Shown: positions 28,732 to 59,724 of the stretch, one piece after another | How the letters are laid out: every line of letters begins with the position of its first letter | Position numbering within the stretch: position 1 is the first letter of the stretch | NCBI GenBank assembly: GCA_965222075.1 | Contig: OZ244937.1 | Location: forward strand, 448,001-512,000 | Source: Candidatus Latescibacterota bacterium | GTDB lineage: Bacteria; Latescibacterota; UBA2968; GCA-2709665 | Length of the DNA: 64,000 bases | Direction: 5' to 3' | The notes under the pieces: generated by a model | What the model saw: only the letters and a program-made list of their open reading frames with translations | What the model was told of the DNA's origin: nothing | Database searches by the model: none | Made by a program: the position numbers and the translations under genes

Positions 28732-28872
28732 ACGCCATCCTCATTGCAGACATCAACCGGTTGTGTGCGCACAGCATGGGCTGGAAGGGTATGATGCATC
28801 AGGAGGTGCTGGAAGTCAAGGACATGTTGGATTGAAAAGGTGGGCGATGCATACGGTGATGGATTTGGAGGG

Positions 28873-40799: not shown

Positions 40800-41090
40800 G
40801 CGGGTGGGTTTTATTTTGTCCATCGGAAATCCCTTTGGAAGTGGTGATGCGTAGAAGCCCATTTCTCTAAGTTTTGTCGTCGTATTCTGGTATGCGTTCG
40901 CACCTGCCTGTGCCGGGCACGGCAGACAGGTCGCTTTTTCAGCCTGAGGTTGCCAGTATTCAATTTTGTGAGCCCGTTTGGTCAACCGTCGGATAGACTC
41001 GTGGGTGGATAAGGCTGGGTCAAGCTGCGCCTCGACGACCCGCTTGACCTGGTGCCTGTCTGCGTGCAACGTGCATGCAGGCCCCTCCAC
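40800..41090 (-). pseudogene. Transposase C-terminal remnant (IS701-like) carrying two micro-insertions
   Basis: QVKRVVEAQLDP...RLTKRAHKIEYWQ...KLREMG resembles IS701 C-termini; family call from memory. Confidence 0.4.
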
Positions 41091-41111
41091 ATAATAGAAA
41101 GGAAGGAAACC

Positions 41112-44100
41112 ATGCGTAAGCTGCTGCTTCATCTGACCTGTTGGTTCGGCTCGGCACGTGTCTCAATCTTCGCAATTCTGTCCATCGCCCTTTTGATTCA
41201 CCCGCTGTCTCTTTCTTCACAGAACAGTTTTTCACTGTCTTTGGATGTGGATGGTACAGCAGGCGACCAGGGGGGCACGTCTCTGAATGTATCCCCTGAA
41301 AAAGTGGTTTCCATTCAGATTTTCGGCAGTGATCTTCAGGGGGCAACAGGTATTTCCGCTCGCTTTGAATACGGTGCGAGTCAGGTTGTTTACGAGGGGT
41401 TTGAGGGAGGCGACGTTTTGCCCAGTGCCCTGGTGCTTACGGGGCACGGCACGAATCCGACCTTTGTCACGATAAGCATGGTGTCTTCGGGTGGTCCCGC
41501 CACGGTCAATACGGGTCTGGTGGGCACGATTCGTTTTCGCACGTCGGCCACACTTTCGGGCACGACGATACGGCTGGTGGGTGCTGAGCTTGGCCGGGGC
41601 GGGCGCGTTGAAAGCGTGACGCTGAATGTCAGCGTTGCGTTGCAATCAGGTCCTTCTCCGGACTTTGACGGCGATGGTATGGTTGGTTTTACAGACTTTT
41701 TGCAATTTGCAGATAAATTCGGGTCAAGTCAGGGCGATGGGAAGTATGAAGCGCGGTTTGATCTGGATGGCGATGGGTCTATCGGGTTTTCAGATTTTCT
41801 CGAATTTGCGGCCCAGTTTGGGAAAAAAGTGCCGTCGCGCCTAAAGGCGGACCGCGAGGCGCTGGTGGCGCTGTACAATGCGACGGATGGGGACAATTGG
41901 ACGGACAAGACCAATTGGTTGACGGATAGCGACCTTTCGACCTGGTTTGGCGTCACGGTTTTGAACGGCCGGGTCACAGAACTGGACCTGGGGGAGAATA
42001 ATCTGACGGGCGAGGTCCCACCCCAATTGGGCAACCTGACCAGCCTTGACAGCCTGCGTCTTGACAGGAATCAATTGAGTGGCGCGATCCCATCCGAATT
42101 GGGCAACCTGTACAATTTGAAGGTGCTGAATCTTAGCTGGAATCGATTGGGTGGTGATATTCCCGTCGAGCTGGCCAACCTGTACAATTTGAAGGTGCTG
42201 AATCTTGACCGCCTTGAATCAGGTGGGAGCATTCCGTCTTTCTTAGGCAATATGACCAACCTTGAGACGCTGAGTCTTAGGAGCAATGCGTTGAGTGGTC
42301 CCATCCCGTCCTTCTTAGGCAACCTGGAAAACCTTGAGAGGCTGACTCTTACTCGCAATGCGTTGAGTGGTCCCATCCCGTCCTTCTTAGGCAACATGAC
42401 CAACCTGACGTTTCTATGGCTCGGTGGGAATGAGTTGAGTGGTCCCATTCCTGTGGAATTGGGCAACCTGGAAAACCTGGAGTCGCTGAGTCTTGGTGGC
42501 AATGCGTTGAGTGGTCCCATTCCGTCCTTCTTAGGCAACATGACCAACCTTAGGCAGCTGTATCTTAGTAGCAATCAGTTGAGTGGTGGGATTCCCGTGG
42601 AATTGGGCAACCTGGGAAACCTTGAGTGGCTGAATCTTAGGAACAATCAGTTGAGTGGTTCGATTCCATCCGAATTGGGCAACCTGGAAAACCTTGAGAG
42701 GCTGAGTCTTGGTGACACTCAGTTGAGCGGTTCGATTCCATCCGAATTGGGCAACCTGGAAAACCTGGAGTCGCTGGGCCTTGAGAACAATCAGTTGAGT
42801 GGTTCGATTCCATCCGAATTGGGCAACCTGGAAAACCTTGAGTGGCTAATTTTTCAGAACAATCAGTTGAGTGGTTCGATTCCATCCGAATTGGGCAACC
42901 TGGAAAACCTTGAGTCGCTGGGCCTTGACTGGAATAGATTGAGTGGTGAGATTCCCGTAGAATTGGGCAACCTGGAAAACCTGGAGTCGCTGGGTCTTGG
43001 TAACAATCAGTTGAGCGGTGGGATTCCTGTGGAATTGGGCAACCTGGAAAACCTTGAGTCGCTGGGTCTTTTTAAGAATCAGTTGAGTGGTGCGATTCCT
43101 GTGGAATTGGGCAACCTGTCCAATCTCACTTCCCTGATTCTTTGGGAGAATCAGTTGAGTGGTATGATTCCTGTGGAATTGGGCAACCTGGAAAACCTTG
43201 AGTGGCTGAATCTTGCCGACAATCAGTTGAGTGGTATGATTCCTCAGAGTCTGACAAGGCTGACAAAGCTGGGGGGATTTCACTTTGGGGGCGAGGGGGG
43301 GCTGTGTGCGCCGCTTGATGCGGCCTTTCAGACGTGGCTTCGGGGCATTGCAGATGCCAATGGCCCAAATTGCTTGAATCCGGCGACGCGTGAGGCGTTG
43401 GTGGCTTTGTACAATGCGACAGATGGAGACAATTGGACGAACAAGACCAATTGGCTCACTGACAATGACATTTCGACCTGGCATGGCGTTGGCGTTTCTA
43501 ACGGTTGGGTTACACACCTGGACATGAGAGATAATAATCTGACGGGTGAACTTCCCGTGGAATTGGGCAACCTGACCAACCTTGAGACTCTGCATCTTCC
43601 CGAAAATGCGTTGAGTGGTGAGATACCCGTGGAATTGGGTAACCTGGCCAACCTCACGCACCTGTGGCTTTACAATAATGCGTTGAGCGGTTCGATACCC
43701 GTGGAATTGGGCGGTCTGGACAGCCTCAAGGTACTGGAGCTTGGCGCGAATCAATTGAGTGGTGAGATACCAGAGGAATTGGGCAAACTGTCCAACCTTG
43801 AGGCGCTGCGTTTTGGTAGCAATGCGTTGAGTGGTGAAATTCCAGAGGAATTGGGCAATCTGACCAACCTTACTAATCTGGGTCTTGACAACAATGAGTT
43901 GAGTGGTGAGATACCCGTGGAATTGGCCAACCTGTCCAACCTTACGGTGCTATTGCTTTGGAACAATCAGTTGAGTGGTGCGATTCCTGTGGAGTTGAGC
44001 AACCTGACCAACCTGAAGGATCTGAATCTTGGCGGCAATCAGTTGAGTGGTGCGATTCCTGTGGAGTTGAGCAACCTGACCAATCTCACTCACTTGAGTT

Positions 44101-44558
44101 TTTGGAACAATCAGTTGAGTGGTACGATTCCCGTGGCATTGGGCAACCTGACCAATCTCACTGAACTGCATCTTAACGAAAATCAGTTGAGTGGTGCGCT
44201 TCCTGTCAAATTGGCCAACCTGTCCAACCTGAAGATGCTGTCTCTTGGCGGCAATCAGTTGAGTGGTACGATTCCCGTGGAATTAGGCAACCTGGCCAAT
44301 CTCACGCATCTGTGGCTTCACAGCAATGCGTTGAGCGGTGCGCTTCCCGTGGAATTGGGCAACTTGACCAATCTCACTGAACTGCATCTTAACGACAATC
44401 AGTTGAGTGGTGCGCTACCTCAGAGCCTCACAAGGCTCACAAAGCTGGAGAAATTTCACTTTGGGGGCGAGGGGGGGCTATGTGCGCCGCTTGATTCGGC
44501 CTTTCAGACGTGGCTTCGGGGCATTGAAGAGACCGGCGGTCCGAATTGCTCAAGTTAG
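41112..44558 (+). CDS. Secreted cohesin-like + dockerin/EF-hand + two-block plant-type LRR protein
   Basis: Signal peptide, beta-sandwich, paired DFDGDGMVGFTDF/DLDGDGSIGFSDF; two capped LRR blocks of about 18 and 13 24-aa units (LxxLxLxxNxLSGxIPxELGNL). Confidence 0.9.
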   Translation: MRKLLLHLTCWFGSARVSIFAILSIALLIHPLSLSSQNSFSLSLDVDGTAGDQGGTSLNVSPEKVVSIQIFGSDLQGATGISARFEYGASQVVYEGFEGGDVLPSALVLTGHGTNPTFVTISMVSSGGPATVNTGLVGTIRFRTSATLSGTTIRLVGAELGRGGRVESVTLNVSVALQSGPSPDFDGDGMVGFTDFLQFADKFGSSQGDGKYEARFDLDGDGSIGFSDFLEFAAQFGKKVPSRLKADREALVALYNATDGDNWTDKTNWLTDSDLSTWFGVTVLNGRVTELDLGENNLTGEVPPQLGNLTSLDSLRLDRNQLSGAIPSELGNLYNLKVLNLSWNRLGGDIPVELANLYNLKVLNLDRLESGGSIPSFLGNMTNLETLSLRSNALSGPIPSFLGNLENLERLTLTRNALSGPIPSFLGNMTNLTFLWLGGNELSGPIPVELGNLENLESLSLGGNALSGPIPSFLGNMTNLRQLYLSSNQLSGGIPVELGNLGNLEWLNLRNNQLSGSIPSELGNLENLERLSLGDTQLSGSIPSELGNLENLESLGLENNQLSGSIPSELGNLENLEWLIFQNNQLSGSIPSELGNLENLESLGLDWNRLSGEIPVELGNLENLESLGLGNNQLSGGIPVELGNLENLESLGLFKNQLSGAIPVELGNLSNLTSLILWENQLSGMIPVELGNLENLEWLNLADNQLSGMIPQSLTRLTKLGGFHFGGEGGLCAPLDAAFQTWLRGIADANGPNCLNPATREALVALYNATDGDNWTNKTNWLTDNDISTWHGVGVSNGWVTHLDMRDNNLTGELPVELGNLTNLETLHLPENALSGEIPVELGNLANLTHLWLYNNALSGSIPVELGGLDSLKVLELGANQLSGEIPEELGKLSNLEALRFGSNALSGEIPEELGNLTNLTNLGLDNNELSGEIPVELANLSNLTVLLLWNNQLSGAIPVELSNLTNLKDLNLGGNQLSGAIPVELSNLTNLTHLSFWNNQLSGTIPVALGNLTNLTELHLNENQLSGALPVKLANLSNLKMLSLGGNQLSGTIPVELGNLANLTHLWLHSNALSGALPVELGNLTNLTELHLNDNQLSGALPQSLTRLTKLEKFHFGGEGGLCAPLDSAFQTWLRGIEETGGPNCSS

Positions 44559-44668
44559 GCGTCGCTCGGGCGGATTACAAACCGTTCGCCTGACTCCGCG
44601 TGTTAAGTTCGTGTAAAAAAAATTGGGGTTCTTTGGCATACACCCGTGTAGAACAGGAGGAAAGCGTT

Positions 44669-45478
44669 ATGAAACGTGTGGTGGTATTCGCTCTGTGTCT
44701 GGGCCTCGCCGCGGCAGGGTCGGTCACTGCCGGTGAGATGACCAGCGGGCTGGAGATGAACGGCGGTCCGAATGCGTTTGCAGGTTTGAAGCTGGAACGG
44801 GTGCAGGATGGGACGCAGAAAGAGGGCGTGTTAAAGCTTCAGGTGACGATGGACCAGATCAAGGACCTGAAGGGCTACGGATTTGTGCTCCAGTTCGATC
44901 CGGCCAGGTACGAGTTTGTAGGGGTCAAAGAGGCTGTCGATAACCTTCTGAGTACGGGCAGCGGGCAGCCGACTCTGTTTCTCTCCGCCAGCCAATCGCC
45001 CGGCCAGGTGGCGGTGGGGGCGATGAAGGTGGACGGTCAGGCCGTAACCGGTGAAGGCAGGCTGCTGGAGGTGACGTTTAAGACCGTAGACGTGCCCCAG
45101 CCCACCGATTTTCAGATTGCCGAGGGGGTGCTGATCGATGTGGAGGGGAACATCGATCCGATCCACCACCTTGAGGTTGGCAACCTGAAGCCGCTGCCGG
45201 ACAGCTTTGGTCTGGATCAGAATATGCCCAATCCGTTCAACCCTTCCACGACCATCGGATATCAGTTGCCAGAGTCGGGGCAGGTCCATCTGGGGGTTTA
45301 CAACCTGCTGGGGCAGGAGGTTCGGACCATGGTCAGTGGAACCCTGGATGCGGGGTATTACACGCTGGATTGGGACGGGAGGGACAATTTCGGGCGTCAG
45401 CTGGCCAGTGGGATCTACCTGTACCGGATGCGGGTCAACGATTTTAGTGAGACGCGCCGGATGATGCTTTTAAAGTAA
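44669..45478 (+). CDS. Cohesin-like domain protein with C-terminal FlgD-Ig (T9SS-CTD-like) domain
   Basis: Signal peptide; DLKGYGFVLQFDP...GEGRLLEVTFK; LDQNMPNPFNPSTTIGY...WDGRD...LASGIYLYRM...MMLLK. Confidence 0.85.
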   Translation: MKRVVVFALCLGLAAAGSVTAGEMTSGLEMNGGPNAFAGLKLERVQDGTQKEGVLKLQVTMDQIKDLKGYGFVLQFDPARYEFVGVKEAVDNLLSTGSGQPTLFLSASQSPGQVAVGAMKVDGQAVTGEGRLLEVTFKTVDVPQPTDFQIAEGVLIDVEGNIDPIHHLEVGNLKPLPDSFGLDQNMPNPFNPSTTIGYQLPESGQVHLGVYNLLGQEVRTMVSGTLDAGYYTLDWDGRDNFGRQLASGIYLYRMRVNDFSETRRMMLLK

Positions 45479-45522
45479 AGGATCGGGGCACAGTACACGA
45501 CAAAACCTAATCCTTAAACAAG

Positions 45523-45827
45523 TGTCAACAACGATTTGGTTTTCGACAGATCCACCGGTTTAGAATTGTCATCGTGGTAGGGGCGCCCCTTGTGGGCGCC
45601 CGCCCCCCCTTGCTGGCTATCTTGAAGGAGTTGGAGAAGGGAGACTCGTAACGATGTCCAGGTCCGACAAACAGCCCTGCCTGCCGAGTCAGGGGCATCG
45701 ATGCCGGGTAATGCCGACGCCTGCCTGCGCCGAGTCCTGCTCGGCAGGCAGGGAGGAAAGGGGCCTGACTTCGGACACGCTTGGGAAGGGGACAAAGGTC
45801 TGGAGAGTGGCGCAAGCCTATAACCTC
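45523..45827. repeat. Composite dispersed repeat containing a GTAG-type REP
   Basis: 45523-45602 matches 50339-50418; 45563-45673 matches 50813-50923; 45649-45827 matches 59524-59706. Confidence 0.9.
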
Positions 45828-45854
45828 CAAAGAAAGACGAGGCGATCCCGGAAC

Positions 45855-46103
45855 AAGCTTGGCCTTCAGGTGAAGCCGAAGTGGCGTGTGCCTGTAGGCG
45901 ACGGCCGTCGGAACGCCGGATGCGGGAAATCCGCACGTCCGGTTCGTGGCCGGTGAGCGTGTCGAACCGACGAGCGGGACGTGGAAACGGGGCATGGAGA
46001 GGCTATTGAGGCACCGTTAGACGAAAGGGTGTGACGGTGAGCGTGTCGAACCGCGGAAACAGATAGGCCGCTCCTAAACCACCGCGCCACATCTCGACTC
46101 TAC
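45855..46103 (+). mobile_element. Group II intron 3' remnant (domains V and VI), no RT ORF
   Basis: GGAACGCCGGATGCGGGAAATCCGCACGTCCGGTTC[ins]GACGAGCGGG is domain V; ends CCACATCTCGACTCTAC. Confidence 0.85.
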
Positions 46104-46200
46104 CGGCTTTACCTCGTGGGGTCCACGGGGCGGCGCTCCCTGGACGTTTCTATTTGGAAAGGCCCGTTTTGTGCCAACATTCGGAAAAGGAGAGAAGCTG

Positions 46201-46311
46201 CTAGTGGTCAGTTTCAGAAGTCCACATGAAGGAAAAATGTCGCAGAATCACACGGAATTACTCAGAAGGAATCCACAGAAACTCATACGAACTTGAGAAA
46301 TCGACCACTAG
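46201..46311. mobile_element. MITE with imperfect 29-bp terminal inverted repeats bounded by CTAG
   Basis: Left CTAGTGGTCAGTTTCAGAAGTCCACATGA versus reverse complement of right end CTAGTGGTCGATTTCTCAAGTTCGTATGA. Confidence 0.72.
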
Positions 46312-46351
46312 GGATAACGGAATCCTAAGTCACTTACGATGGAGGTTTGCG

Positions 46352-48376
46352 ATGAATTTTAACGACAATCCAATTGAAGAGAGCCAGCAAGATAGTATCG
46401 ACAGAACTGCTCTCGCTGAAAAATTCGCTCAGCAAGTACTGGATCTTGATGCCTCCAATGGGATCGTAGTGGGCGTCCTTGGTCCTTGGGGTTCCGGAAA
46501 AACATCCTTCGTCAATCTAGCACGGAGAGAGTTCAATGAGAGGGAAATTCCGATACTCGAATTTAACCCTTGGATGTTTAGCAATACGGGGCAACTCGTT
46601 AAATCGTTCTTTGCCGAGTTCGTGGCGCAACTAGAGCTAAGAAATGATGACGACCTTGCCAAAATAGGTGCAGCTATATTGAATTACGCTCCGTTATTCC
46701 TTAGCCTGTTGCCCGGGGGCCAAATTGTCGGCACCTTTGCGAGATTAGCAGGTGATACTATTGGCCGTCGGAACAGAAGTGTTGAGCATGAGCGGAGCGA
46801 GATCGAAGAAGCGCTTTCTGGACTCGACAAACCGATTATTGTGTTACTTGATGACGTTGACCGATTGACCACATCGGAGATCCGAGATGTATTTAAGCTG
46901 GTTCGCTTGATTGCCAACTTCCCGAACGTCATTTACATCGTAGTTTTTGACCGAGACCGCGTCGAGCGTGCACTGGATGAGCGTGGTATAAAGGGTCGGG
47001 ACTACATCGAGAAAATCCTTCAATTTTCTGCAGATTTGCCGGTAGTGTCCCGTCACGTACTCTGCCAGCAGATTCGCTCAGCAATTGTTAGTGCTCTCAA
47101 CGAAGTTGATGATCCCGGCCCGTTTGATGAGCAGGTCTGGTCTGGTGTCTTGCAGCGGGTCGTCGCTCCACTAATCCAAAACATGCGAGACGTTAACCGA
47201 TATTCAGTTTCTATTCACACTGCTATAAGATCTCTTGAAGGGCGAATTCAGCTAGCCGACCTTTTCGCACTCGAAGCCGTTCGCATGTTTCTTCCGGATG
47301 TTTTCAAGCTCCTACACGGCTCTATCGATGACCTAACGAGCCCTAGAGATCCCAACAATGGACACGGTGCTTCCACGCCGCCGGCACACCCTACGGTAAT
47401 CGTCAAGGCCTTAATTAAAGCCGCCGGCGATCAGAAACAACATGTCGTTGAAAGTATGATTGAACTACTCTTTCCGGCTGCAGCACACAATGTCGGTGGC
47501 AGTGCCTTCCAAGGGGAAGGGACTAAAGAGTGGCTTAAGGAGCGTCGCATCGCGTATCCGGACATCTTGAAGCTCTATCTGGAGCGTCGCGTTAGCGAAC
47601 ACTTGCAAGCGTTCATTGACTCAGAACGGGCATGGGAAAGAATGCATGAACTCAATGACTTCGAGGAGAATTTGAACACTCTCAATCCGGCAAATATACA
47701 TAACGTGATTGCATTGCTAGAGTTGTTCGAAGACCAATTCACCTCAAATCATGTTATACCAGGTATTACCGTTCTACTCAATCTTTTTTCGGCTCCCGAA
47801 TGCCGCCGGGAAAAATACGACTTGTCTCTCAGCGATACGGTAAATCGCATCACAGGTCGGTTGTTAAGATCTCTGGATGACCATCAGAAACTCAACGAAG
47901 CAATACACGACACGTTAGGCAATTTAAGGTCATTGTCGTCCAAATGGAAACTCATCACCATCGTCGGACACCGAGAGAAGACGGGGCAAAAGCTGGTATC
48001 GGAGGATAAAGCGTTGGAACACGAGAAAGATTGGCGTGTTGAAGTCCGAAGAGCCCGAGTCGACAATCTTTTGAAGGAGTATGACCTCTTCCGAATTCTC
48101 CTTGATACGAAGCACGACGCTGCTCCTTCAGAAGACCCGCTAGCAATCGACGACTCACCGGAGATGACGTTTGCCCTACTTTATACTGCTCAGAGAGAGA
48201 CCAAAAATCAAGCAATTCAGAGTTCCGCCTGGAAAAATCTAATCTTTCTGTACAACAATGAGGACAAGTTGATAACGCAGGTTCAAAATCTGCGCAGTGC
48301 AGATCCAGAGAGATTCTGTAACTATATCAGACTTGCGAACGAATACCTCTCACCAGGGGGTCGAGGTGTTCCATAG
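46352..48376 (+). CDS. KAP-family P-loop NTPase (possible phage defence)
   Basis: DNPI...D.IDR, GPWGSGKTS, FNPWMF, LLDDVDRL, YIEKILQ; GGAGG RBS; lower GC. Confidence 0.9.
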   Translation: MNFNDNPIEESQQDSIDRTALAEKFAQQVLDLDASNGIVVGVLGPWGSGKTSFVNLARREFNEREIPILEFNPWMFSNTGQLVKSFFAEFVAQLELRNDDDLAKIGAAILNYAPLFLSLLPGGQIVGTFARLAGDTIGRRNRSVEHERSEIEEALSGLDKPIIVLLDDVDRLTTSEIRDVFKLVRLIANFPNVIYIVVFDRDRVERALDERGIKGRDYIEKILQFSADLPVVSRHVLCQQIRSAIVSALNEVDDPGPFDEQVWSGVLQRVVAPLIQNMRDVNRYSVSIHTAIRSLEGRIQLADLFALEAVRMFLPDVFKLLHGSIDDLTSPRDPNNGHGASTPPAHPTVIVKALIKAAGDQKQHVVESMIELLFPAAAHNVGGSAFQGEGTKEWLKERRIAYPDILKLYLERRVSEHLQAFIDSERAWERMHELNDFEENLNTLNPANIHNVIALLELFEDQFTSNHVIPGITVLLNLFSAPECRREKYDLSLSDTVNRITGRLLRSLDDHQKLNEAIHDTLGNLRSLSSKWKLITIVGHREKTGQKLVSEDKALEHEKDWRVEVRRARVDNLLKEYDLFRILLDTKHDAAPSEDPLAIDDSPEMTFALLYTAQRETKNQAIQSSAWKNLIFLYNNEDKLITQVQNLRSADPERFCNYIRLANEYLSPGGRGVP

Positions 48377-48594
48377 ACGAATCGTTCGGCGTGCCTGCGA
48401 TAGACGTGGTTGAGCACCTGTTGTCTGGCGGTTTGAGTCCGCCGTGTCACGCCGTCGTGCGCGGTGTCGTGCGTCCTGAGAACCGGAGAAGTGCCCCGGG
48501 TATGATGTCTTCAGCTGTGGCATAATCGCCAAGAGTTTGCTGTACCTGCTTTCGATGCCGCGCCAGAAATCGTAATGTATCTACTTAGTGGCTA

Positions 48595-49884
48595 CTAAAC
48601 ATTCGGTGTGTTGTTTTTATTGGAGTTGGGATGTTTAAGTCGAAACAAATGGCGGAACGTTCGCGCCTGTTTGGAGAGACGGTCGTGTTTGATACGCACT
48701 AAAGTGGTCGCATTGGCAGCCACAATAACCATGCCAATTTGAATGGATGCGCCTTGATGTCCACGATATTTAATCCGTGTTGCACCTCGACAGACCTGCC
48801 TGTGCGTTGCACGCAGACAGGTAAGGGTTGTGATCAGGTTTTCAACGAAGGGACGACTATAGGCACAGGCGTGAGCAATTTTGATCTGAGTGGCGTTTTG
48901 TTTTTCTTCCAAGCCGGGTATGTGAAGCGCCTCCTTGATCATTTCAGGCGTGGGCACTTTCGGGATCGGTGCGATTGAACTGGGAATGCCCAGGGTTGCG
49001 ATCCCTCGAAAGTGGAGTTGATTTCTCAGATTGGGATCATCCAATCCCAAGTCGCCAGCCAAAGATCGAATGAGCGGTTTTCGTCTTTGATATGCAAAGT
49101 CGAGCAAGTCGATGGCCCCATCAACAGTCTGCACAAGAGGCAAGGCACCTGCTTGCGCGCTGCGCGCAGGCAAGTAAGAGGCATCATGCTGGATTGCCCA
49201 CAGGCAGATGATAGCCAAAGATGAAGCCGGTTCCCATCTCAGCGATGATACCTGGTTTTTTCCCGAATTGGCAGGGACAGTTGCTCTTGCCTTTCTTGAT
49301 CGGGGCGATCGTCGGGTCACCTGTCTGCGTGCGGTGACGCACAGGCAGGTAGGCATTGACGATTTTACAGTGATCCAATTTTTCCCGTTGACCAACTGTC
49401 GTGATTGTTTTTCAATGTGTCGATGGGCCTGGAGAGCCTCGTCGAGTTTGTGCATCAACCGCTCTTGCTGCACCTGGTCTATGGCGATGTCTTTTTGCAG
49501 GTGCATTTGGGCGCAAAGGGCAAGCGGCGTAACCTGACATCCAATAGAAAGCAGCCGTTTTTCAGTCTCTCGAACCCATTTGAGATAGACTTTGCCCTTG
49601 CCCCGGCATTGTCTGCCAAAGGTGCGCATCTGCGCCTTGAGATCCGTTTGCAGGGTCTCTGCTTCGGCTTGGATGCGGCTGCCCCCTGCGGTGAAAGGGG
49701 CTATTTGTTGGATGATTTGGAGGATTTTTTTCGCTTTATAAAGCGTCGTGGCACCTGTCTGCCGTGCCGGGCACGGCACAGGCAGGTCCGTAACCCGTTG
49801 GGAGCCTTGCTCAGCGGGAAACGTATCGACCACCAGGTGCTGGGGAGAAACCAGCCCTTCCTCCATGGCCTCTGCTGCCTGGAT
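48595..49884 (-). pseudogene. DDE transposase pseudogene (IS5/IS4-like), frameshifted and 5'-truncated by IS3
   Basis: VVDTFP...TDATTL, IVNAYDPTIAPIKKGK...QFGKK (other frame), SLAGDLG; four palindromic micro-insertions. Confidence 0.75.
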
Positions 49885-50267: not shown

Positions 50268-50379
50268 TCTCGGACTCGCTCTGCTGGCCTGGAAGGGCGA
50301 TTCAGGGAGGGTACCGACACGTTCCTCGCGCCCGTGACTGTCAACAACGATTTGGTTTTCGACAGATCCACCGATTTAG

Positions 50380-50853
50380 AATTGTCATCGTGGTAGGGGC
50401 GCCCCTTGTAGGCACCCGACCCTCGGAGGCGCGATGGTCACCGTTACAGAAATCAGGGCAACCACAAGGGTTGCCTGCCTGCGTAGCGGTCTGCCTGCCT
50501 GCAGCGCGGTGCGCCGCGCAGGCAGGCGCTGCAGGCAGGCCCCTACGTTGGGTGACGCGGTCGGCGCGTGCAACGGACCGGGTTTGGGGACAATTCGATG
50601 CGATGGAATACCGATACCACATACCCAATCCCATCCGCATCCACCACCCGCAGGGGCGGTTCGCGAACCGCCCCTACAAAGACCGCCATGACATCGATAT
50701 GGAATTTCTGACCGATTCCCAACCATCGAAATGGACGGATTCGTTGTCATGTCCAACCGATTCCCATCCGTGGTTATGAACACATTCGTTGCAATGCCCA
50801 ACCCCATCCACGGAATTGTCATCGTGGTAGGGGCGCCCCTTGTGGGTGCCCGC
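50380..50853 (+). pseudogene. Fragments of REP-associated tyrosine transposase (RAYT) with embedded REPs
   Basis: IEMDGFVVMSN (50725), FVAMPNPIHGIVIVVGAPLVGAR (50785; degenerate HUH), PTLGDAVGA (about 50542). Confidence 0.7.
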
Positions 50854-50960
50854 CCCCCCTTGCTGGCTATCTTGAAGGGGTTGGAGAAGGGAGGCCGATA
50901 ACGATGCTCAGGTCCGACAAACATCCCCGCCTGCCTGCGCTGGCGCGCCAGCAGGCAGGG

Positions 50961-52409
50961 ATGTCCATTCTGGTGATTGATGACGATCCGGAAATCCGGT
51001 CTTCCGTGGGGATGTTTCTGCAGGCGCGGGGGCATATGGTCTACGAGGCCGCGGACGGGTTTGTGGGTATGAAGGTGCTTCGGAGGGAGGCTGTTGACAT
51101 CGTGATCACGGATGTGAAGATGCCGGGGATGGATGGGTTCGAGGTTTTAAGGGAGGTCAAGCGTCTGTCTCCTGATACGGAGGTGATTGTGGTTACGGCC
51201 TTCAGTGAGGTCGAGCATGCGTTTCGGGCGATGCGGGATGGGGCATTTGATTTTTTCACGAAGCCGTTCAGGGTGGAGGAGCTGAACGCCTCTTTGCAGC
51301 GGACCATGCGTTACCGGGCGCTTCATCAGGAGAAGAACAGGATGCAGGCGCGTCTGGATCGCATCAAGGCGGAGTCCAGGCAGCGCTTTGGTCTGGCGGC
51401 GATTGTGGGGGAGAGTGGGGCCATTTGCGCGGTGCGGGAGCAGGTCCGGCAGGTGTGCCAGTCCGGGGATACGACGGTGCTCATCTGCGGCGAGACGGGT
51501 ACGGGCAAGGAGCTGGTGGCGCGGGCCATTCACACCGAAAGCGCCCGTGCGGGCGGACCGTTTGTGCCTGTGAATTGCTCGGCCATCCCTGAGGCGCTGT
51601 TTGAAAGCGAGTTTTACGGCCACGAGCGGGGTGCGTTCACGGATGCCCGGCAGGCACGAAAGGGCCACTTTGAGCAGGCGGACGGGGGCACGCTGTTTTT
51701 GGACGAGATCGGCGATATGGACCCGGGGATGCAGAGCAAGCTGCTGCGCACTTTAGAGGAGAAGCGGTTCCGTCCGGTGGGCGGGTCCAAAGAGGTTGCG
51801 GTGGATGTGCGGGTGGTCTCGGCCACGAACCGGGACCTGTCCGGGATGGTCCGTGAGGGTGTTTTTCGGGAGGATCTGTTCTACCGGCTGAATGTGTTCG
51901 CCATCCGGGTTCCACTGCTGCGAGAGCGTTTGGAGGATATTCTCCCACTGGCGCAGTATTTTTTAAGTCGGTATGCGGAGGAGATGCGCAAACCGATCCG
52001 GGGGTTTGCCCCGGAGGCCGTGGCGCTGCTAAAGGCCTACCCTTTTCCTGGCAATGTTCGAGAGTTGAACAATACGATTGAACGGGCTGCGATTCTGTGC
52101 GGGAACGGTCAGGTGAGGGCAGATCACCTGCAGGATCTGACTGTTGGGGCCTGCCTGCGCCGAGATCTGCCCGGCAGGCAGGCGGGTGGACCGCCTGCCT
52201 CCTGTGAGGCGGAGGGCTTGCCTGCTGCGCTGGATGTGGCCGGGGTGGAGAGCCTGAATCTGGACGCGCTTGAACGACAGGCGGTGGGGGAGGCCATCCG
52301 CAGGTGCGATGGAAATCAGGTTCAGGCTGCCGGGCTGCTTGGTATTTCGCGCAATACCCTCCGTCGCCGGATCAGGGCATACGATCTGGTGGAGGGATCA
52401 GCATTCTGA
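50961..52409 (+). CDS. Sigma-54-dependent response regulator (NtrC/AtoC family)
   Basis: REC (VIDDD, DVKMPG), GETGTGKE, GAFTDA, FLDEIG, FPGNVREL, Fis-type HTH. Confidence 0.95.
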   Translation: MSILVIDDDPEIRSSVGMFLQARGHMVYEAADGFVGMKVLRREAVDIVITDVKMPGMDGFEVLREVKRLSPDTEVIVVTAFSEVEHAFRAMRDGAFDFFTKPFRVEELNASLQRTMRYRALHQEKNRMQARLDRIKAESRQRFGLAAIVGESGAICAVREQVRQVCQSGDTTVLICGETGTGKELVARAIHTESARAGGPFVPVNCSAIPEALFESEFYGHERGAFTDARQARKGHFEQADGGTLFLDEIGDMDPGMQSKLLRTLEEKRFRPVGGSKEVAVDVRVVSATNRDLSGMVREGVFREDLFYRLNVFAIRVPLLRERLEDILPLAQYFLSRYAEEMRKPIRGFAPEAVALLKAYPFPGNVRELNNTIERAAILCGNGQVRADHLQDLTVGACLRRDLPGRQAGGPPASCEAEGLPAALDVAGVESLNLDALERQAVGEAIRRCDGNQVQAAGLLGISRNTLRRRIRAYDLVEGSAF

Positions 52410-52486
52410 ACCCGGGGTTGCTGCCTGCCTGTTGCAGGCAGGTATGAAAGATCGGGTCCGGATCAAGGAGTTGGGAGGATATGGCA

Positions 52487-55400
52487 ATGAAATTCACGAG
52501 AAGGTCTGTTGGTGGATTGTTGGTGGGGATGGGGATTGCTTTCGCAGGGCTTGCTTTTGTGTATGCCCAGACCGCAGCGGATGCGGATTTTGACGGGGAT
52601 GGCAAGGTTGGGTTCAGCGATTTTGTGTCGTTTGCAGGCAAATTCGGGACCAGTCGAGGCGATGGGAGGTACGAGGCGAAGTACGATCTGGACGGCGACG
52701 GGCAGGTGGGTTTCACGGATTTTGTGGCGTTCGCCGGGTTTTTTGGTCAGAGCGCCGTTCCCAACGAGGCGCCGATATTGGAGCGGATCGGCGACCAGGG
52801 CGTACCAAAAGGCGTTACACTGATCATCGAACTGGCCGCTTCCGATCCGGACGGGGATGATCTGGACTACCGGGTGAGCGGTCAACCGGAGGGCTCGTCG
52901 CTGTCCGGGTCCACCTTCCGCTGGACGCCCACGAGCGGTGAGGACGACACCCACCGCATCACCTTCACGGTAAGAGACAGCCGGGGCGGGAGGGCTTCGG
53001 AGACGATCACCGTGAGGGTGGTGGAATTTCGGTTCAGGCTGGTCGAGCACCGGATTACGACCGAGGAGCCCAGCTTTGTCAATATTCTCTTCCAGGTAAT
53101 CGACTCCGACAACTGGGGGGTGACGTCGCTGACCACCGAACACTTTGAAGTGCGCGAGGACGATCAGGTGGTATCCCCTACCGAGTCGGCCATGCGCGTC
53201 CAAAAGCGGGAGGCCATTCCGCATCGTTTCAAGTTGAAGACCGTTCTGATGCTCGACACCAGCACGAGCGTAAAGGACCACCTGGAGCAGATTAAACAGG
53301 CGGCGGTCATTTTGGTGGAAAACATGACCGAGAACCAGGAGATCGCCCTGTACGAATTCTCTGAAAAGCCGGAGCGCTTGCAGGATTTCACCAACGATGC
53401 AGCAGCCCTGACCAAAGCGATTCGGGAAATTCGTTTGGGCTTTCCCACCACCAACCTGTACGGAAGCATTATCACCGGAACCCGGCGGTGGGCGGATATC
53501 TTCACCACAACCGAAGTCCAGCAGGGGTTTCTGGTTATCCTGACCGACGGAAGCGACACGCAGGGGTCTTATACGCTATCGGAGGCGCTTGCGGCGCGGG
53601 GAAACAAGAATGTCTACACCATCGGGCTGGGGAACGAGATTGACCCGGACGTCCTGCAGGAGCTGGGCAACGCCGGGTTTTTCCAGATTACGGACGTGAG
53701 CAAACTGGCTGACCAGCTGGCCGAGAGGTTTATCGAGATTCAAAAAAGGATCGTCTCGTTCGCCGACAGTTTCTACTGGCTGAGATACCTCAGCCCCAAG
53801 CGTGGGGACAGAGAGCATTCGCTGGCGGTGATTGTGAAGGGGAATGAGGTCAATTACTCGATCGAAGGGAGTTTCAATAGTAGGGATTTCTATTCGGTGC
53901 GTCAGGGCGTTTTCGTCAACACCTCGCCTTCCAATGCGGAGGGAATTGAAGAACTAAGGATGGCCAAGGGCGATTCGATTCGCCTCCAGGCGGTGACATT
54001 TCCGGAGCTCAAGTCCCCACAGTATATCTGGGAGACGAGCGACCGCGATATCGTCGCGATCAAGCCGGATACGCTTGATGCATCGGTGGCGTGGACGATT
54101 GCGGTTGGGGACAGCGGTCAGACGGCGACTTTGACGGTGTTTGACCGGGCGAATGAGTTGGACGGGCAGGTGCAGGTGCATGTAGGAGTAATCGGAACAG
54201 GCTTCTTCGCCCTGCCGGGAGGCGCATTGATGGAGATGGTGCGGATACCGCCGGGGACGTTTCGGATGGGATCGCCTCCATCAGAGGAGGGTCGTTCTTC
54301 GGCTGAGGAGCCGGTGCATGAAGTGACGATCAGGCAGGGATTTTACCTGGGGAAATATGAGGTCACACAGGCGCAGTGGGAGGCGGTGATGGAGAGCTAC
54401 CCGTCAAAGTCCAAGGTATGCGGAGACTGTCCCGCGGAAAACTTATTTCGGCACGAAGCGCAGGCGTTTATTCGGAAGCTCAACGAGATAGAGGGAGAGA
54501 ACCGGTATCGTTTGCCGAGCGAGGCGGAGTGGGAGTATGCGGCGCGTGCGGGCACGACGACGAGGTATAGCTGGGGGGATGAGATCGGCACCAACCGGGC
54601 CAATTGCCGTCGTTGCGGCAGTCAGTGGGACGAAAGGGGGATAGCGCCAGTGGGATCGTTCCCTGCCAATGCCTGGGGCCTGTACGACATGCACGGAAAC
54701 GTGCGGGAGTACGTGCAGGACTGCTGGGTAAACGACTACCGGAGGGCGCCTGCTGACGGCTCGGCGGTGGAGGGCGACTGCTCTAGACGCGTGGCGCGTG
54801 GCGGTTCGTGGGACGACTTCCCCGACGCCCTCCGCTCGGCGAGCCGATCTGGGAAGGACGACAGTTACTATTCCACATATCGGATCTTCTACAATGGCTA
54901 CGGTTTTCGAGTTGCCCGGACGGTCCCGGAGGCGGACCGCGAGGCGCTGGTGGCGCTTTACAATGCGACCGATGGGGACAACTGGACGGATAAGACCAAT
55001 TGGTTGACGGACAACGACCTTTCAACCTGGTTTGGCGTCACGGTATCCAATGGTCGGGTCACGTCCCTGGACCTGAGAGAAAACAACCTGACTGGCGAGA
55101 TCCCACCCCAATTGGGCAGCCTGACCAGCCTTGACAGCCTGCGCCTCGACCACAATGCACTTTCCGGCCCGATTCCCCCAGAATTGGGGAACTTGACCAA
55201 AATGAAGAGGCTGATTCTTTTCAGCAACCAGTTGAGTGGCACGGTTCCACCCGAATTAGCCAAACTATCCAACCTTGAGCGGCTGATTCTTTTCAGCAAC
55301 CAGTTGAGTGGCACGGTTCCACCCGAATTAGCCAAACTATCCAACCTGAAGTGGCTGTATCTTTCCACCAATCAGTTGAGTGGTTCGATTCCTGTGGAAT

Positions 55401-56755
55401 TGGGCAACCTGTCCAACCTTGAGCGGCTGATTCTTTCCGCCAATCAGTTGAGTGGTGAGATACCCGTGGAATTGGGCAACCTGTCCAACCTGAAGTGGCT
55501 GTATCTTTCCACCAATCAGTTGAGTGGTTCGATTCCTGTGGAATTGGGCAACCTGGAAAACCTTGAGCGGCTGCATCTTTCCAGCAACCAGTTGAGTGGC
55601 ACGGTTCCACCCGAATTAGCCAACCTATCCAACCTGAAGTGGCTAATTCTTTCCGCCAATCAGTTGAGTGGTGAGATACCCGTGGAATTGGGCAATCTAT
55701 CCAACCTGACGCATCTGTATCTTTACGGCAATGGGTTGAGTGGTTCGATTCCTGTGGAATTGGGCAACCTGGAAAACCTTGAGCGGCTGCATCTTTCCAG
55801 CAACCAGTTGAGTGGCACGGTTCCACTCGAATTAGCCAACCTATCCAACCTGAAGTGGCTGATTCTTTCCGCCAATCAGTTGAGTGGTTCGATTCCTGTG
55901 GAATTGGGCAACCTGTCCAACCTTGAGCGGCTGATTCTTTCCGCCAATCAGTTGAGTGGTGAGATACCCGTGGAATTGGGCAATCTATCCAACCTGACGC
56001 ATCTGTATCTTTACGGCAATGGGTTGAGTGGTTCGATTCCTGTGGAATTGGGCAACCTGCCCAACCTGACGCATCTGTATCTTTACGGCAATGGGTTGAG
56101 TGGTTCGATTCCTGTGGAATTGGGCAACCTGGAAAACCTTGAGCGGCTGCATCTTTCCAGCAACCAGTTGAGTGGCACGGTTCCACCCGAATTAGCCAAC
56201 CTATCCAACCTGAAGTGGCTGATTCTTTACGGCAATGGGTTGAGTGGTTCGATTCCTGTGGAATTGGGCAACCTGCCCAACCTGACGCATCTGTATCTTT
56301 CCAGCAACCAGTTGAGTGGCACGGTTCCACCCGAATTAGCCAACCTATCCAACCTTCAGTGGCTGTGGCTTAACAACAATGGGTTGAGCGGTGGGATTCC
56401 TGTGGAATTGGGCAACCTGGAAAACCTTGAGCGGCTGCATCTTTCCAGCAACCAGTTGAGTGGCACGGTTCCACCCGAATTAGCCAACCTATCCAACCTT
56501 CAGTGGCTGTGGCTTAACAACAATGGGTTGAGCGGTGGGATTCCTGTGGAATTGGGTAACCTGGAAAACCTTGAGCGGCTGTATCTCCACGATAACGCAT
56601 CCTTGACGGGTGCACTTCCTCAGAGCCTGACAAAGCTGACGAAGCTGGTGGAGTTTTTCTTTCATGCCACGGGGCTATGTGCGCCGCTTGATTCGGCCTT
56701 TCAGACGTGGCTTTGGGGCATTGAAGAGACCCGCGGTCCGAATTGCTCGAGTTAG
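52487..56755 (+). CDS. Secreted dockerin/EF-hand + Ig-like + vWA + FGE-sulfatase (C-type lectin fold) + LRR protein
   Basis: DFDGDGKVGFSDF pair, DPDGD Ig-like, LDTSTS/LTDG MIDAS, RLPSEAEWEYAARAG...RGGSW...GFRVAR, about 22 LRR units. Confidence 0.9.
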   Translation: MKFTRRSVGGLLVGMGIAFAGLAFVYAQTAADADFDGDGKVGFSDFVSFAGKFGTSRGDGRYEAKYDLDGDGQVGFTDFVAFAGFFGQSAVPNEAPILERIGDQGVPKGVTLIIELAASDPDGDDLDYRVSGQPEGSSLSGSTFRWTPTSGEDDTHRITFTVRDSRGGRASETITVRVVEFRFRLVEHRITTEEPSFVNILFQVIDSDNWGVTSLTTEHFEVREDDQVVSPTESAMRVQKREAIPHRFKLKTVLMLDTSTSVKDHLEQIKQAAVILVENMTENQEIALYEFSEKPERLQDFTNDAAALTKAIREIRLGFPTTNLYGSIITGTRRWADIFTTTEVQQGFLVILTDGSDTQGSYTLSEALAARGNKNVYTIGLGNEIDPDVLQELGNAGFFQITDVSKLADQLAERFIEIQKRIVSFADSFYWLRYLSPKRGDREHSLAVIVKGNEVNYSIEGSFNSRDFYSVRQGVFVNTSPSNAEGIEELRMAKGDSIRLQAVTFPELKSPQYIWETSDRDIVAIKPDTLDASVAWTIAVGDSGQTATLTVFDRANELDGQVQVHVGVIGTGFFALPGGALMEMVRIPPGTFRMGSPPSEEGRSSAEEPVHEVTIRQGFYLGKYEVTQAQWEAVMESYPSKSKVCGDCPAENLFRHEAQAFIRKLNEIEGENRYRLPSEAEWEYAARAGTTTRYSWGDEIGTNRANCRRCGSQWDERGIAPVGSFPANAWGLYDMHGNVREYVQDCWVNDYRRAPADGSAVEGDCSRRVARGGSWDDFPDALRSASRSGKDDSYYSTYRIFYNGYGFRVARTVPEADREALVALYNATDGDNWTDKTNWLTDNDLSTWFGVTVSNGRVTSLDLRENNLTGEIPPQLGSLTSLDSLRLDHNALSGPIPPELGNLTKMKRLILFSNQLSGTVPPELAKLSNLERLILFSNQLSGTVPPELAKLSNLKWLYLSTNQLSGSIPVELGNLSNLERLILSANQLSGEIPVELGNLSNLKWLYLSTNQLSGSIPVELGNLENLERLHLSSNQLSGTVPPELANLSNLKWLILSANQLSGEIPVELGNLSNLTHLYLYGNGLSGSIPVELGNLENLERLHLSSNQLSGTVPLELANLSNLKWLILSANQLSGSIPVELGNLSNLERLILSANQLSGEIPVELGNLSNLTHLYLYGNGLSGSIPVELGNLPNLTHLYLYGNGLSGSIPVELGNLENLERLHLSSNQLSGTVPPELANLSNLKWLILYGNGLSGSIPVELGNLPNLTHLYLSSNQLSGTVPPELANLSNLQWLWLNNNGLSGGIPVELGNLENLERLHLSSNQLSGTVPPELANLSNLQWLWLNNNGLSGGIPVELGNLENLERLYLHDNASLTGALPQSLTKLTKLVEFFFHATGLCAPLDSAFQTWLWGIEETRGPNCSS

Positions 56756-56796
56756 GCGTCGCTCGGGCGGATTACAAACCGTTAGCCTGACTCCGC

Positions 56797-56975
56797 GTGT
56801 CAAACGGTCGGGTTCAATTTCTATCTTTCTCAGCAGGGAACTGCATCAACCTCTCCAACACGACCTTTTACGTCTATACCGCTTACACCTCAAAATGGCA
56901 GCGAAAAGACGGTGCTTCATGGGTGGATATTCCAGGCACGGAACGCGCGGGTTTGTGTTCCTACCTGGCGCAACC
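56797..56975 (+). pseudogene. Fragment of an extracellular domain gene
   Basis: SNGRVQFLSFSAGNCINLSN...SKWQRK...WVDIPGTERAGLCSY looks protein-like but has no proper start or end. Confidence 0.4.
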
Positions 56976-57174
56976 ATCGAAACGATTGCCAAACACCGCA
57001 CGACAACGCTAACCAGACGAACTTGGAAGCAAAGAGTCAAAGATGAGAAACTTGCCATTTATGGGCCAACACACGCAATCGCCAATTCGTCAGCACGGCC
57101 TACCGCTTATGGGGCGAAGCCCCTGGGTCGTTTTCGCGGCCGTGCCGTTTCGCGATGGCGATGGGAGGTGACCG

Positions 57175-59359
57175 ATGAATACTAATCCCGAAAAGGACTC
57201 CAAATGGGAACAAATCGTCACCTACCTGAAGCATCTCGCCCTTTGTCTCGCTGCCCGGGGCCTGCTATTGCTCGCGATATCGGTGACTGTTCTGATACCT
57301 CCCCTAATCCCAACCAGCATCGTCTTGGCCTTGGCATGGGCATTGGACTGGGCTTGGGCTTGGGCCTTAGCTTGGGCTTGGGCCTTGACATTGGCAGGGG
57401 CCTTGGCCTTAGCTTGGGCTTGGGCCTTGACATTGGCAGGGGCCTTGGCATGGGTCTGTGACTGGACATGGGCATGGACATGGATTCCAGAACTATTAGA
57501 ATCCCTCTGCGTATTCATCAGAGATAAACGGATAATCGAGAATGCAAACATCATTACGATTATCACCATAGGCCTGATTTCGCTTCTGCTTCTAAGAAAA
57601 GACACCAGGCAATCTCTATTGAACATCATCAAGAAGACCTTCGAAGTCTTTCGGGGTAGATGGCTGCCAAGAATGGATAGCGGAGAAAGCCTGTTGAAGA
57701 CTTGGCGGTGCTACTTCGCAAAGGTCTGGCCGTCCATGAAAGAGACGTTCACTGAGTCCCTAAAGCTGGCCGCCTACCCGGTGCATTTCGCCCTTCGTCT
57801 CGCCGCCCGGTTCCTGCTGCTGCTCGCGATACTGGTGACCGTTCTAATGACGCCCCTCCTTTACCCTGTGTATCTTGTCCTTTACCCTGTGTATCTTGTC
57901 ATTCGTCTCGATTTCCTTCGTCTCGCTCCCTTTGTCGCTTGGTTCCTGCTGTTGCTCACGATACTGGCGGCTATTCTAATATCATCCCTAATCCTAATTA
58001 GCATCGTCTCGGACTTGGGATGGAATATAGGGCTATTAGAATCTCTCCGGGCGTTCATCAGAGAAGACCTGAAAAGTGAGAATGTAAACATAATTACGAT
58101 TATCGCCTTGCTCGCTAGCATAGGCCTGTTTTCGTTTCTGCTTCAAAAATCTGTAGAAGACATCAGGAAATCTCTATCGAACATCAGAGCGAAAATCGTC
58201 GAAGTCTTTCGGGACAAATGGTGGCCAAAGATAGATATTAGGGAAAGCCTGAGGGTAACTTGGCGGTGCTACGTCGCAAGGGTCGGGTCGTACATGAAAT
58301 ATACGTTCACCCAGTCCCGAAGGCTGGCCTTCGCCGCGTTGATCTTGTGCATTATCTTGGTTTGCGGTTACATTTCGGTAAAAGAATTCAACAAATGGCA
58401 AGGGGAGGTGATGTCCAAGCTGAAGGCTATCGAGGGTAAGGTGAATGGGAGCGTCATCGTCTTGAGCGATTTTTCGCCATCTTATCCATTGGAAAAGGGC
58501 ACCCAGTTTTCGTTGTTCTATCTGTTCCAAGGCGATTTGGACAGCAAGCAAGGCATCTGTCCGGCAGACAGCAATTTGGTGGAATGGTTGACGTCGTTCA
58601 AAATGGCGATTTCAAAATGCTCCAATGAGGGCGGACGTGTGAGGCTGAAGGTACGGGCGTTTGCGAGCACCGCGCCGGTGACTAAGAAAGGTATTCTCGA
58701 CACTAAGTAGTCAAGCAGAAGTAATTGTGAACTCTCTCACTGGATTACAGGAGTAGAATTCCCTACGAAAAAATCGCCTTAACTCTTTGTAAATATTGTG
58801 CTATAGATGTAATAATCTTCAGCATAGGGCCAGTAATATTCGTTTTTTACAAAAACTATTGCATCACTACTTATCAGTAGTCTGTTGGCTCAAGAAAATC
58901 CTGCTCACAACACCCTACCAAAGCTTCGCAAATAGGGCTAAATTGGTGGTTGAAGGCATAGAAAATCACACCAAAAGCCGAAATCAACAAACCACAGTTA
59001 TGAAGTCGGATACGTTCAACTATAAGATCGCCAATGAGCGCGCCGAGGCAATCATCTACTTCCTGACGTTGGCCGACACCATACAATACAACCCGAAGAG
59101 ATGCAAGGCCGCCCTTAACGATAGCCTTATATGGCGGGGATATCCGGAGCCCGACAGCACATGGGAAGGGCAGGGCTTCACCGTGACCTACAATCCATGG
59201 GAAAGCTATGCGAAGATGACGGAGGCCAAACTGGTGAAAGACGGTTCACTGGATAACCGACGACGCGACCTTGAGTTCCTCAACCGCACGGTGGAGATCA
59301 TCATTGAGGACGGCGGCTGCCTGACTAAGCCAGTGGACAACGCCGGGAATTCAGATTAA
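57175..59359 (+). pseudogene. Membrane protein with internal duplication and OmpA-C-like domain, split by an AT-rich insertion
   Basis: VRAFAS (ORF 57175-58710) continues as FNYKIANERAEAI...NRTVEI (59003-59359). Confidence 0.6.
58709..59002. mobile_element. AT-rich insertion of about 290 bp (MITE or IS remnant)
   Basis: Abrupt GC drop; AAGT at both junctions; removal restores the reading frame (DTKSDTFN). Confidence 0.5.
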
Positions 59360-59724
59360 ACCACACAGGGCGAAGGAGTATGACAGTAGTGCGGGAGGGA
59401 GCGCGGAACAGGGCAAAAGTCGAGTGCCAACGAAGAGGTGGCACATCGTGCCTTGTGCGCGTGTGGGGTTGCACGCGGCGATAAAAGGGTTTAGCGAAGG
59501 ATTATCACCCCGGGGGAGACGCATAACGATGCTTAGGTCCGACAGACAGCCCCGCCTACCTGCCGAGTCAGGCGCATCGATGCCGGGTAATGCCGACGCC
59601 TGCCTGCGCCGAGTCCTGCGCGGCAGGCAGGGAGGAAAGGGGCCTGACTTCGGACACGCTTGGGAAGGGGACAAAGGTCTGGAGAGTGGCGCAAGCCTAT
59701 CACCTCAAAGTGTTCACAGTATTG

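Follow-up and report, generated by a model that had tools for sequence, protein, structure and literature searches.

Ultra-small, untagged palindromic repeats in a Latescibacterota genome insert exactly and are probably a non-autonomous mobile element of the REP/SDR kind

The SDR repeats of Nostocaceae are reportedly shorter than 30 bp, show signs of mobility, insert into each other and into palindromes, and produce no target duplication, and we know of no enzyme assigned to them. The Rickettsia palindromic elements (RPE) have a size of about 100-150 bp, with RPE-4 and RPE-6 being shorter. Excerpts of the survey by Di Nocera et al. 2013 (PMC3733652) describe REPs as repeats of 20-40 bp, some of them located within uvrA, uvrB, and recB, including a class without dedicated transposase; in the same excerpts, RPEs are CGTC-tagged, MITEs have terminal inverted repeats, a target-site duplication, and a length of 70-300 bp, and the movement of REP-like micro-repeats is still an open question, with some families lacking a known transposase. 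REPINs with RAYTs are the subject of Bertels & Rainey 2011 (PMC3116915), of which excerpts were likewise used. The current study deals with a family of palindromes of 19-36 bp with the ends CCTGYCTG...CAGRCAGG, which was noticed in a stretch of 64,000 nucleotides (the window) of Candidatus Latescibacterota bacterium (GenBank assembly GCA_965222075.1, contig OZ244937.1, positions 448,001 to 512,000 of the forward strand) and was followed through the source genome (G000; 5.36 Mb, single contig, 59% G+C) and its relatives. No account of this family was found in the literature, with Additional file 3 of PMC3733652 and the paper of Elhai et al. 2008 lying outside the search, and the motif strings are absent from the main text of PMC3733652.

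The window contains 11 matches to the strict pattern CCTGYCTG N{3,20} CAGRCAGG, compared with none in each of 100 dinucleotide-preserving shuffles. A preliminary description of this DNA had listed 13 copies, all of which were found, 10 by the strict pattern and 3 as degenerate, variant, or split copies; their lengths had been given correctly, 11 of the 13 being divisible by three, and the eleventh strict match (29230-29262) lies beyond the range of that list. The genome-wide pattern scan that it had proposed yielded 248 raw matches in G000, which correspond to 229 innermost copies and to 207 clusters separated by distinct 25-nt flanks, referred to here as independent sites. Lengths peak at 33 bp (93 copies), 27 bp (50), 30 bp (19), 25 bp (17), 36 bp (13), and 19 bp (8). 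Each copy represents one imperfect hairpin in which an invariant outer stem of 7 bp (CCTGYCT/AGRCAGG) is followed by a bulge of 2-3 nt, an inner stem that varies between copies (4-7 bp), and a loop of 3-5 nt, and the mean DNA folding energy is -10.8 kcal/mol for the copies and -5.0 kcal/mol for shuffled copies. The ends are symmetric in 125 copies of G000, and 100 copies show an asymmetry of C/T and A/G, i.e., a T.G wobble on one strand and a C.A mismatch on the other; CTTG/CAAG ends and longer composite palindromes occur as further variants. Rfam revealed no family match within the window.

On balance, the family is probably an ultra-small, untagged, non-autonomous mobile element of REP/SDR-like character, i.e., a single-strand hairpin transposon. 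The preliminary description had claimed very small elements that insert precisely and nest, and the comparison with G001, a genome of the same genus, agrees with it: all seven testable sites are empty there, the difference equals the exact element length, and the target-site duplication typical of MITEs is present at none of the seven. The purL gene of G000 contains a 33-bp copy that is followed 13 nt further on by a 21-bp copy; both are absent from 24 of 24 orthologues in relatives, and once both are removed, 30 nt face 30 nt in the G001 gene (95% protein identity). Two more regions of 20 kb (92-95% DNA identity with G001) have a counterpart for five of their six copies, each of the five sites being empty with exact length, while the sixth copy has no G001 match. 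These alignments show that the elements enter at a single phosphodiester bond, without duplication or loss of target sequence.

One of the five empty sites of these regions is occupied in G000 by a composite of 60 nt, a 27-mer enclosing a 33-mer, and the identical composite is present at a second G000 locus with different flanks. The outer ends can therefore carry foreign content. It is thereby shown that a nested pair can move as a unit and, since copies also enter other copies, that the ends are what is recognized. Every level of a four-level nest at 319.7 kb of G000 (locus L185) was inserted just after CCTGYCTG, and copies were also seen in clusters. The same observations bear on the idea that the copies are footprints or solo ends of a larger element, a transposon or MITE terminating in CCTGYCTG, which would agree with the transposon-like inverted repeats at their termini. 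Within G000, however, no pair of ends spaced by 60-4000 bp has extended inverted repeats (all five candidates are nested or tandem micro-copies), and families of identical copies, together with a composite at two loci, are unlike excision scars, which makes this origin extremely improbable.

The copies of the window and their hosts are the following (strand given where assigned).

29230-29262: 33-bp copy, in frame in the gene of a 1946-aa PorU-like sortase (28840-34680, plus strand)
40903-40930, plus strand: 28-bp asymmetric copy, with the plus strand reading CCTGCCTG...CAGACAGG
41055-41081 (genome position 489055): 27-bp copy, degenerate at one end, located where the open reading frame (ORF) of a leucine-rich repeat protein begins
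45720-45752: 33-bp copy, inserted in a repeat of ~350 bp
48595-49866, minus strand: DDE transposase remnant, ORF open for 423 aa, host of four copies
48795-48821, plus strand: 27-bp copy in the transposase remnant
49148-49174: 27-bp variant copy, CCTGCTTG...CAGGCAAG, in the transposase remnant
49320-49349, minus strand: 30-bp copy in the out-of-frame middle of the transposase remnant
49754-49786, minus strand: 33-bp copy in the transposase remnant
50474-50539: nested pair, in which a 33-bp copy (50494-50526) sits inside another 33-bp copy and divides it after ...GGTCTG
50904-52409, plus strand: sigma-54-dependent response regulator with receiver, AAA+, lid, and Fis-type helix-turn-helix (HTH) domains, host of two copies
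50930-50959: 30-bp copy, adding HPRLPALARQ to the N-terminal extension of the regulator
52150-52182: 33-bp copy, in frame in the linker between AAA+ lid and HTH of the regulator, ACLRRDLPGRQA
52424-52442: 19-bp minimal copy, directly after the stop codon of the regulator
59599-59631: 33-bp copy in the spacer before a dihydroxy-acid dehydratase-family gene (59725-61713, minus strand)

As had been proposed, the nested pair at 50474-50539 disrupts a REP of the GTAG type at the junction GGGTTG|CCCCTAC, and the intact REP GGGTTGCCCCTAC is located at 38845-38870. The copy at 45720 is missing from both copies of the ~350-bp repeat that were read in the relative G009 (GCCGGCG|GAGGAAAGG). This non-coding repeat (window 45753-46103) occurs about 20 times in G009 and is also found in G002 and G003 (74-81% identity), and it has no Rfam match. 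GTAG-type REPs (GTAGGGGCGCCCC...) linked to short, apparently coding pieces that contain an HUH-like motif are present at 45530-45610 and 50340-50900; these pieces, of which there are several copies, correspond to the RAYT debris of the preliminary description. Short-read contigs from four public runs on 40800-59800 were fragmented and mostly represented other copies of the family; none of the joints listed from these runs, beyond which there are 171 more, skips exactly one element, and they are uninformative on empty alleles.

For the ORF at 48595-49866, 83 database homologues were retrieved, mostly of 316 aa and a few with DDE transposase or InsH N-terminal Pfam domains, eight of which were aligned. 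The inserts at 48795-48821 (TTL|ICRGA) and 49148-49174 (ASY|ALPL) are missing in all eight, and the insert at 49754-49786 is missing in the sole homologue that reaches the site (RVTD|ATTLY). The three excision junctions that had been predicted thus match the homologues exactly, and the A|T junctions reported for all four copies of this ORF were found as well. Around 49320-49349, the window ORF is out of frame relative to the homologues and 10 residues longer, and the gene is therefore a transposase remnant, as had been described, though it is still open.

The sigma-54-dependent regulator was aligned with 11 homologues out of 6126 matches. Its N-terminal insert of 10 residues (50930-50959) is present in three of the five closest homologues, not in the other two, and is missing in the six more distant ones, and the linker insert ACLRRDLPGRQA (52150-52182) is present in two of the five closest and missing in P0087, P0088, and P0092. 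A second linker insert, PACAGAPAGR, is found in three of these five, and one regulator homologue has neither linker insert. The in-frame linker copy that had been claimed is accordingly real, and close homologues are polymorphic for the inserts. A paralogue of the regulator in G000 (2829124-2831133) contains four copies, the same linker copy included, so the gene was duplicated after that insertion.

With respect to coding sequences, our own rough gene finder (3829 genes, 85% coding), which misses atypical genes, places 88 of the independent sites in predicted genes and 119 outside. Lengths divisible by three are commoner in genes, 80 of 88 versus 84 of 119 (Fisher P = 4e-4), which bears out the claim that reading frames are usually preserved, and the bias is already strong outside genes. 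Moreover, all six frames are free of stops in 100 of the 113 distinct sequences, compared with 41% of shuffles, 53% of interior-only shuffles, and 26% of random genomic pieces. The genic hosts comprise purL, a double uvrA, a UvrD/PcrA-like helicase, two RND pumps, feoB, hsdR, a subunit of the xanthine dehydrogenase family, and an ABC exporter, and, depending on the phase, the added peptides read LPA..QAG, PAC..GR, or CL..RQ. Frame-compatible lengths and the near-absence of stops allow insertions in loops or linkers of working proteins to survive; the family looks like a small element shaped for harmlessness in genes. The copies give PurL, UvrA, response regulators, and other proteins additional loops of 7-12 residues and thereby create differences in protein length among close strains.

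The distribution over genes and spacers is also relevant for the proposal that the copies are functional hairpins (terminators, mRNA stabilizers, or protein-binding sites) which are under selection and have multiplied by recombination or duplication instead of transposition. Indeed, 119 of the 207 independent sites lie outside predicted genes, though genes cover 85% of the genome, some copies closely flank genes, e.g., the sigma-70 gene at 1470703-1471623, and some multiply as passengers of larger repeats. But this proposal is very improbable in view of identical copies at unrelated sites with exact empty alleles, of the 88 independent sites in genes including purL and uvrA, of nesting, and of the spread of copy numbers (0-265) in a single genus.

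The family is patchily distributed. The number of copies varies between 0 and 265 in 41 relatives, and the same range is covered within genus g2 alone, compared with 0-2 matches to a reversed control pattern. Of the 125 phylum genomes with a completeness of at least 90%, 58 contain a match, and at least 50 copies are present in 9. The backwards-read control motif matches 54 times in G095, a genome of the same phylum, which suggests a different palindromic repeat family there. An exact scan for CCTGCCTGC N15 GCAGGCAGG in one genome per species found at least 118 stretches in many phyla according to the record titles, and about two thirds of the 80 loci read from it have the family interior (judged by eye). 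Whole-genome counts amount to 51 in Thiorhodospira sibirica ATCC 700588, by its record title a culture-collection strain, 32 in a metagenome-assembled genome (MAG) of Lentisphaerae, 27 in a MAG of Desulfarculaceae, 11 in Pelomicrobium, and 1 in Aquamicrobium, the last probably being a chance match. A match is also present in 16 viral contigs, 11 of them with a typical interior, and its position is identical in several contigs that are related to each other. Since the short-read contigs of the present stretch were fragmented, counts from draft genomes may be low, with part of the copy number unassembled.

If the elements are single-strand hairpin transposons, they would move as a folded single strand, and an enzyme acting in trans would cut at the foot of the hairpin and join the element into a cut single-stranded target, possibly in the "peel and paste" manner of IS200/IS605. 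The strand CCTGCCTG...CAGACAGG would enter, in G000, on the 3' side of a tetranucleotide, C-N-S-R, which is similar to the 3' end of the element, CAGG. The flanks of the G000 copies have a purine at position -1 (212 of 229) and a pyrimidine at +1 (198 of 229), with G..C and A..T pairs in excess, and A is rare at -2 and T at +2. When the 91 independent asymmetric copies are oriented to read CCTGCCTG...CAGACAGG, C at -4 on the 5' side is found in 72 of them versus 31 with G at +4 on the 3' side, which equals the background (P = 1e-9); this asymmetry holds without nested copies (63 versus 22 of 78). CCGA, CAGA, CGCG, CCCA, and CAGG are the preferred tetranucleotides. At the one empty site checked (1826664), the motif already exists in G001 (TCGG) and hence belongs to the target there. 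The strand CCTGCCTG..CAGACAGG is the leading-strand sequence in 35 of 91 copies (P = 0.035). Orientation by bulge side was dropped because 34 of 100 copies came out differently under the T.G wobble rule; copies oriented by bulge side showed no preference with respect to replication (112:100) or transcription (38:49).

The preference for C at -4 also touches on the idea of a selfish hairpin without own transposase that is moved by a ubiquitous host enzyme cutting single-stranded DNA, e.g., a type IA topoisomerase. According to excerpts of PMC3467081, bacterial topoisomerase I favors cleavage sites that have a cytosine 4 nt to the 5' side; every end of the elements reads C-A-G-G|, and 79% of the oriented G000 targets read C-N-N-R|. 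We regard such a host enzyme as distinctly improbable; if involved, it would account for the same ends across many phyla and phages without a linked gene.

Several points weigh against the favored reading of a mobile single-strand hairpin. No excision or insertion event was directly seen. Part of the abundance reflects hitch-hiking: 13 of 22 copies of the commonest G000 33-mer have identical 8-nt flanks on both sides, and copy number in relatives is partly due to larger repeats. Lengths not divisible by three are common, namely 19-mers and 25-mers in G000 and a 28-mer that is frequent among the G009 copies listed, the latter being the reason why frame-compatible length is a tendency and no strict rule. 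The one-sided C at -4 was not seen in 116 metagenome 27-mers (47 versus 44) or in G009/G021 (8 versus 7 of 27), and the target of Thiorhodospira is symmetric (18 and 22 of 24); the strand bias against replication is weak and opposite in direction to that of IS608. Finally, no enzyme that moves the elements was found among the candidates examined (RAYT, IS200, DUF559). Y1_Tnp hits and copies stand at 0 and 134 in G019, 32 and 2 in G004, and 75 and 1 in G038; the RAYT-like genes of G021, G009, Thiorhodospira (G042), and Pelomicrobium (G043) are flanked by their own REPs, which are of the GTAG type except in Thiorhodospira; and the sole intact IS200-like element of G000 has unrelated hairpins.

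The hitch-hiking can be followed in detail. The 13 shared-flank copies of the commonest 33-mer (G000 391139, 1155662, 1905896, and 10 more) have the flanks YTGAGCGG|CGCCCTTC, with small flank variants in two of them, and because of these common flanks they are passengers of a larger, unnamed repeat. The largest flank cluster in G000 (n = 11) consists of this 33-mer borne within a larger repeat. In G019, G009, and G021 (loci L376-L435), the same larger repeat CCATCCGGGCTG|..|CGTCCGGCCCTT holds a 27-mer, a 28-mer, and a 21-mer, respectively, at the same point. The G019 copies are passengers of a larger repeat, and hence no comparison of target motifs was drawn from this genome. In Thiorhodospira, many copies occupy the loop of an inverted copy or the center of another palindrome.

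The preliminary description had named a RAYT or other HUH enzyme as a candidate for the mobilization, a suggestion that found no support, since Y1_Tnp hits do not track copy number and RAYT-like loci are flanked by other REPs. In the corresponding alternative, the family would be an ordinary REP family moved by a RAYT, i.e., a member of the REP/REPIN-RAYT system. The size of 19-36 bp and the palindromic form fit REPs as defined in the excerpts of PMC3733652, which report REPs in uvrA, uvrB, and recB; RAYT-like genes occur in five of five tested copy-bearing genomes outside the relatives; and in genus g2 one RAYT-like gene of 201 aa was matched only in five genomes with 63-265 copies. However, the flank logos show neither a GTAG nor a CGTC tag at the copies, whose ends are CCTGYCTG/CAGRCAGG, and no RAYT-like locus read is flanked by copies; only the G021 locus has one, inserted after the stop codon and absent in G009. 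Furthermore, G000 with 225 copies has no RAYT-like match at E <= 0.001, and G019 with 134 copies has no match. Membership in the REP/REPIN-RAYT system is therefore considered unlikely.

The spread by a cassette with a small Vsr-like (DUF559) endonuclease would be another possibility. In family f1, all 12 genomes with at least 15 copies have a strong DUF559 match and all eight genomes without a match have at most 6 copies, copies lie less than 100 nt from the DUF559 domain in two G003 cassettes, and in Pelomicrobium a copy is located 235 nt from a DUF559 gene. These related genomes are, however, not independent samples, there is no DUF559 match in G024 (112 copies) or in the Lentisphaerae genome (32 copies), and around 12 of the 14 DUF559 loci no copy lies closer than 1.5 kb. 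Hairpins of another kind, ACTCCCCC..GGGGGAGT, terminate the G003 cassettes, whose internal copy looks like an insertion, so that this route appears quite unlikely. The cassettes bounded by ACTCCCCC..GGGGGAGT are small (G003 L233:1520-2070 and L443:1400-1900), and several relatives have the DUF559 domain within open frames of 600-800 aa.

In G000, Thiorhodospira, and G003, the genes that have copies on their flanks are ordinary (sigma-70, gltX, ilvC, ilvB, ppk, comEC), without any recurring enzyme. Large DUF1156 methylase proteins with a Y1-like segment were set aside as movers because a Y1_Tnp search revealed none in G000. In these methyltransferases of 1235-1440 aa (G021 L236:14478-18185; G003 L237:1495-5817), one or two internal segments correspond to the C-terminal two thirds of the Y1_Tnp (IS200-like) profile, which gives the appearance of an in-frame insertion of a RAYT-like fragment.

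In comparison with the known systems, the family resembles the SDRs in its behavior only, i.e., in tiny size, nesting, entry into palindromes, and lack of duplication; their sequences are presumably unrelated, and the present family is found in several phyla and in GC-rich genomes with many copies in frame in genes. RPEs are longer, CGTC-tagged, and confined to one genus, but they too are palindromic repeats found in frame in genes that probably still work (excerpts of PMC3733652), just as 80 of 88 genic sites here have a length divisible by three. MITEs differ by their size and their duplication, since the present elements have only 19-36 bp and no duplication. The IS200/IS605 elements (IS608; excerpts of PMC5027513, PMC3201880, and PMC5934647) share the absence of a target duplication and the putative recognition of hairpins; in G000, an apparent insertion in one orientation beside a short tetranucleotide and a target resembling the right end of the element may be further likenesses. 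In contrast to them, the present family has one hairpin and not two subterminal ones, no tnpA, and a target motif that varies between lineages.

In form, the family is similar to REPs and REPINs, which according to the excerpts of PMC3733652 and PMC3116915 are GC-rich palindromes of 20-40 bp with tens to hundreds of copies and a patchy occurrence among relatives, some of them read through in genes such as uvrA, and which are thought to be miniature non-autonomous transposons. The short palindrome in many copies is common to both, but the family described here has no GTAG/CGTC tag and no REPtron, i.e., no RAYT flanked by copies; both of its ends are fixed and symmetric, the same ends recur in many phyla, insertion is exact and includes nesting, and the frame-compatible, stop-free design is strong. 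Because the traits of REP-RAYT (tag and REPtron), MITE (duplication), and IS200/IS605 (gene and two hairpins) are lacking, the family is classed here as a variant of the REP/SDR kind, the likeness to SDRs being one of behavior, and not as a member of any named family. With exact filled and empty sites, nests, a composite moved as a unit, and ends shared across phyla, it offers clean material for studying the movement of REP-like repeats.

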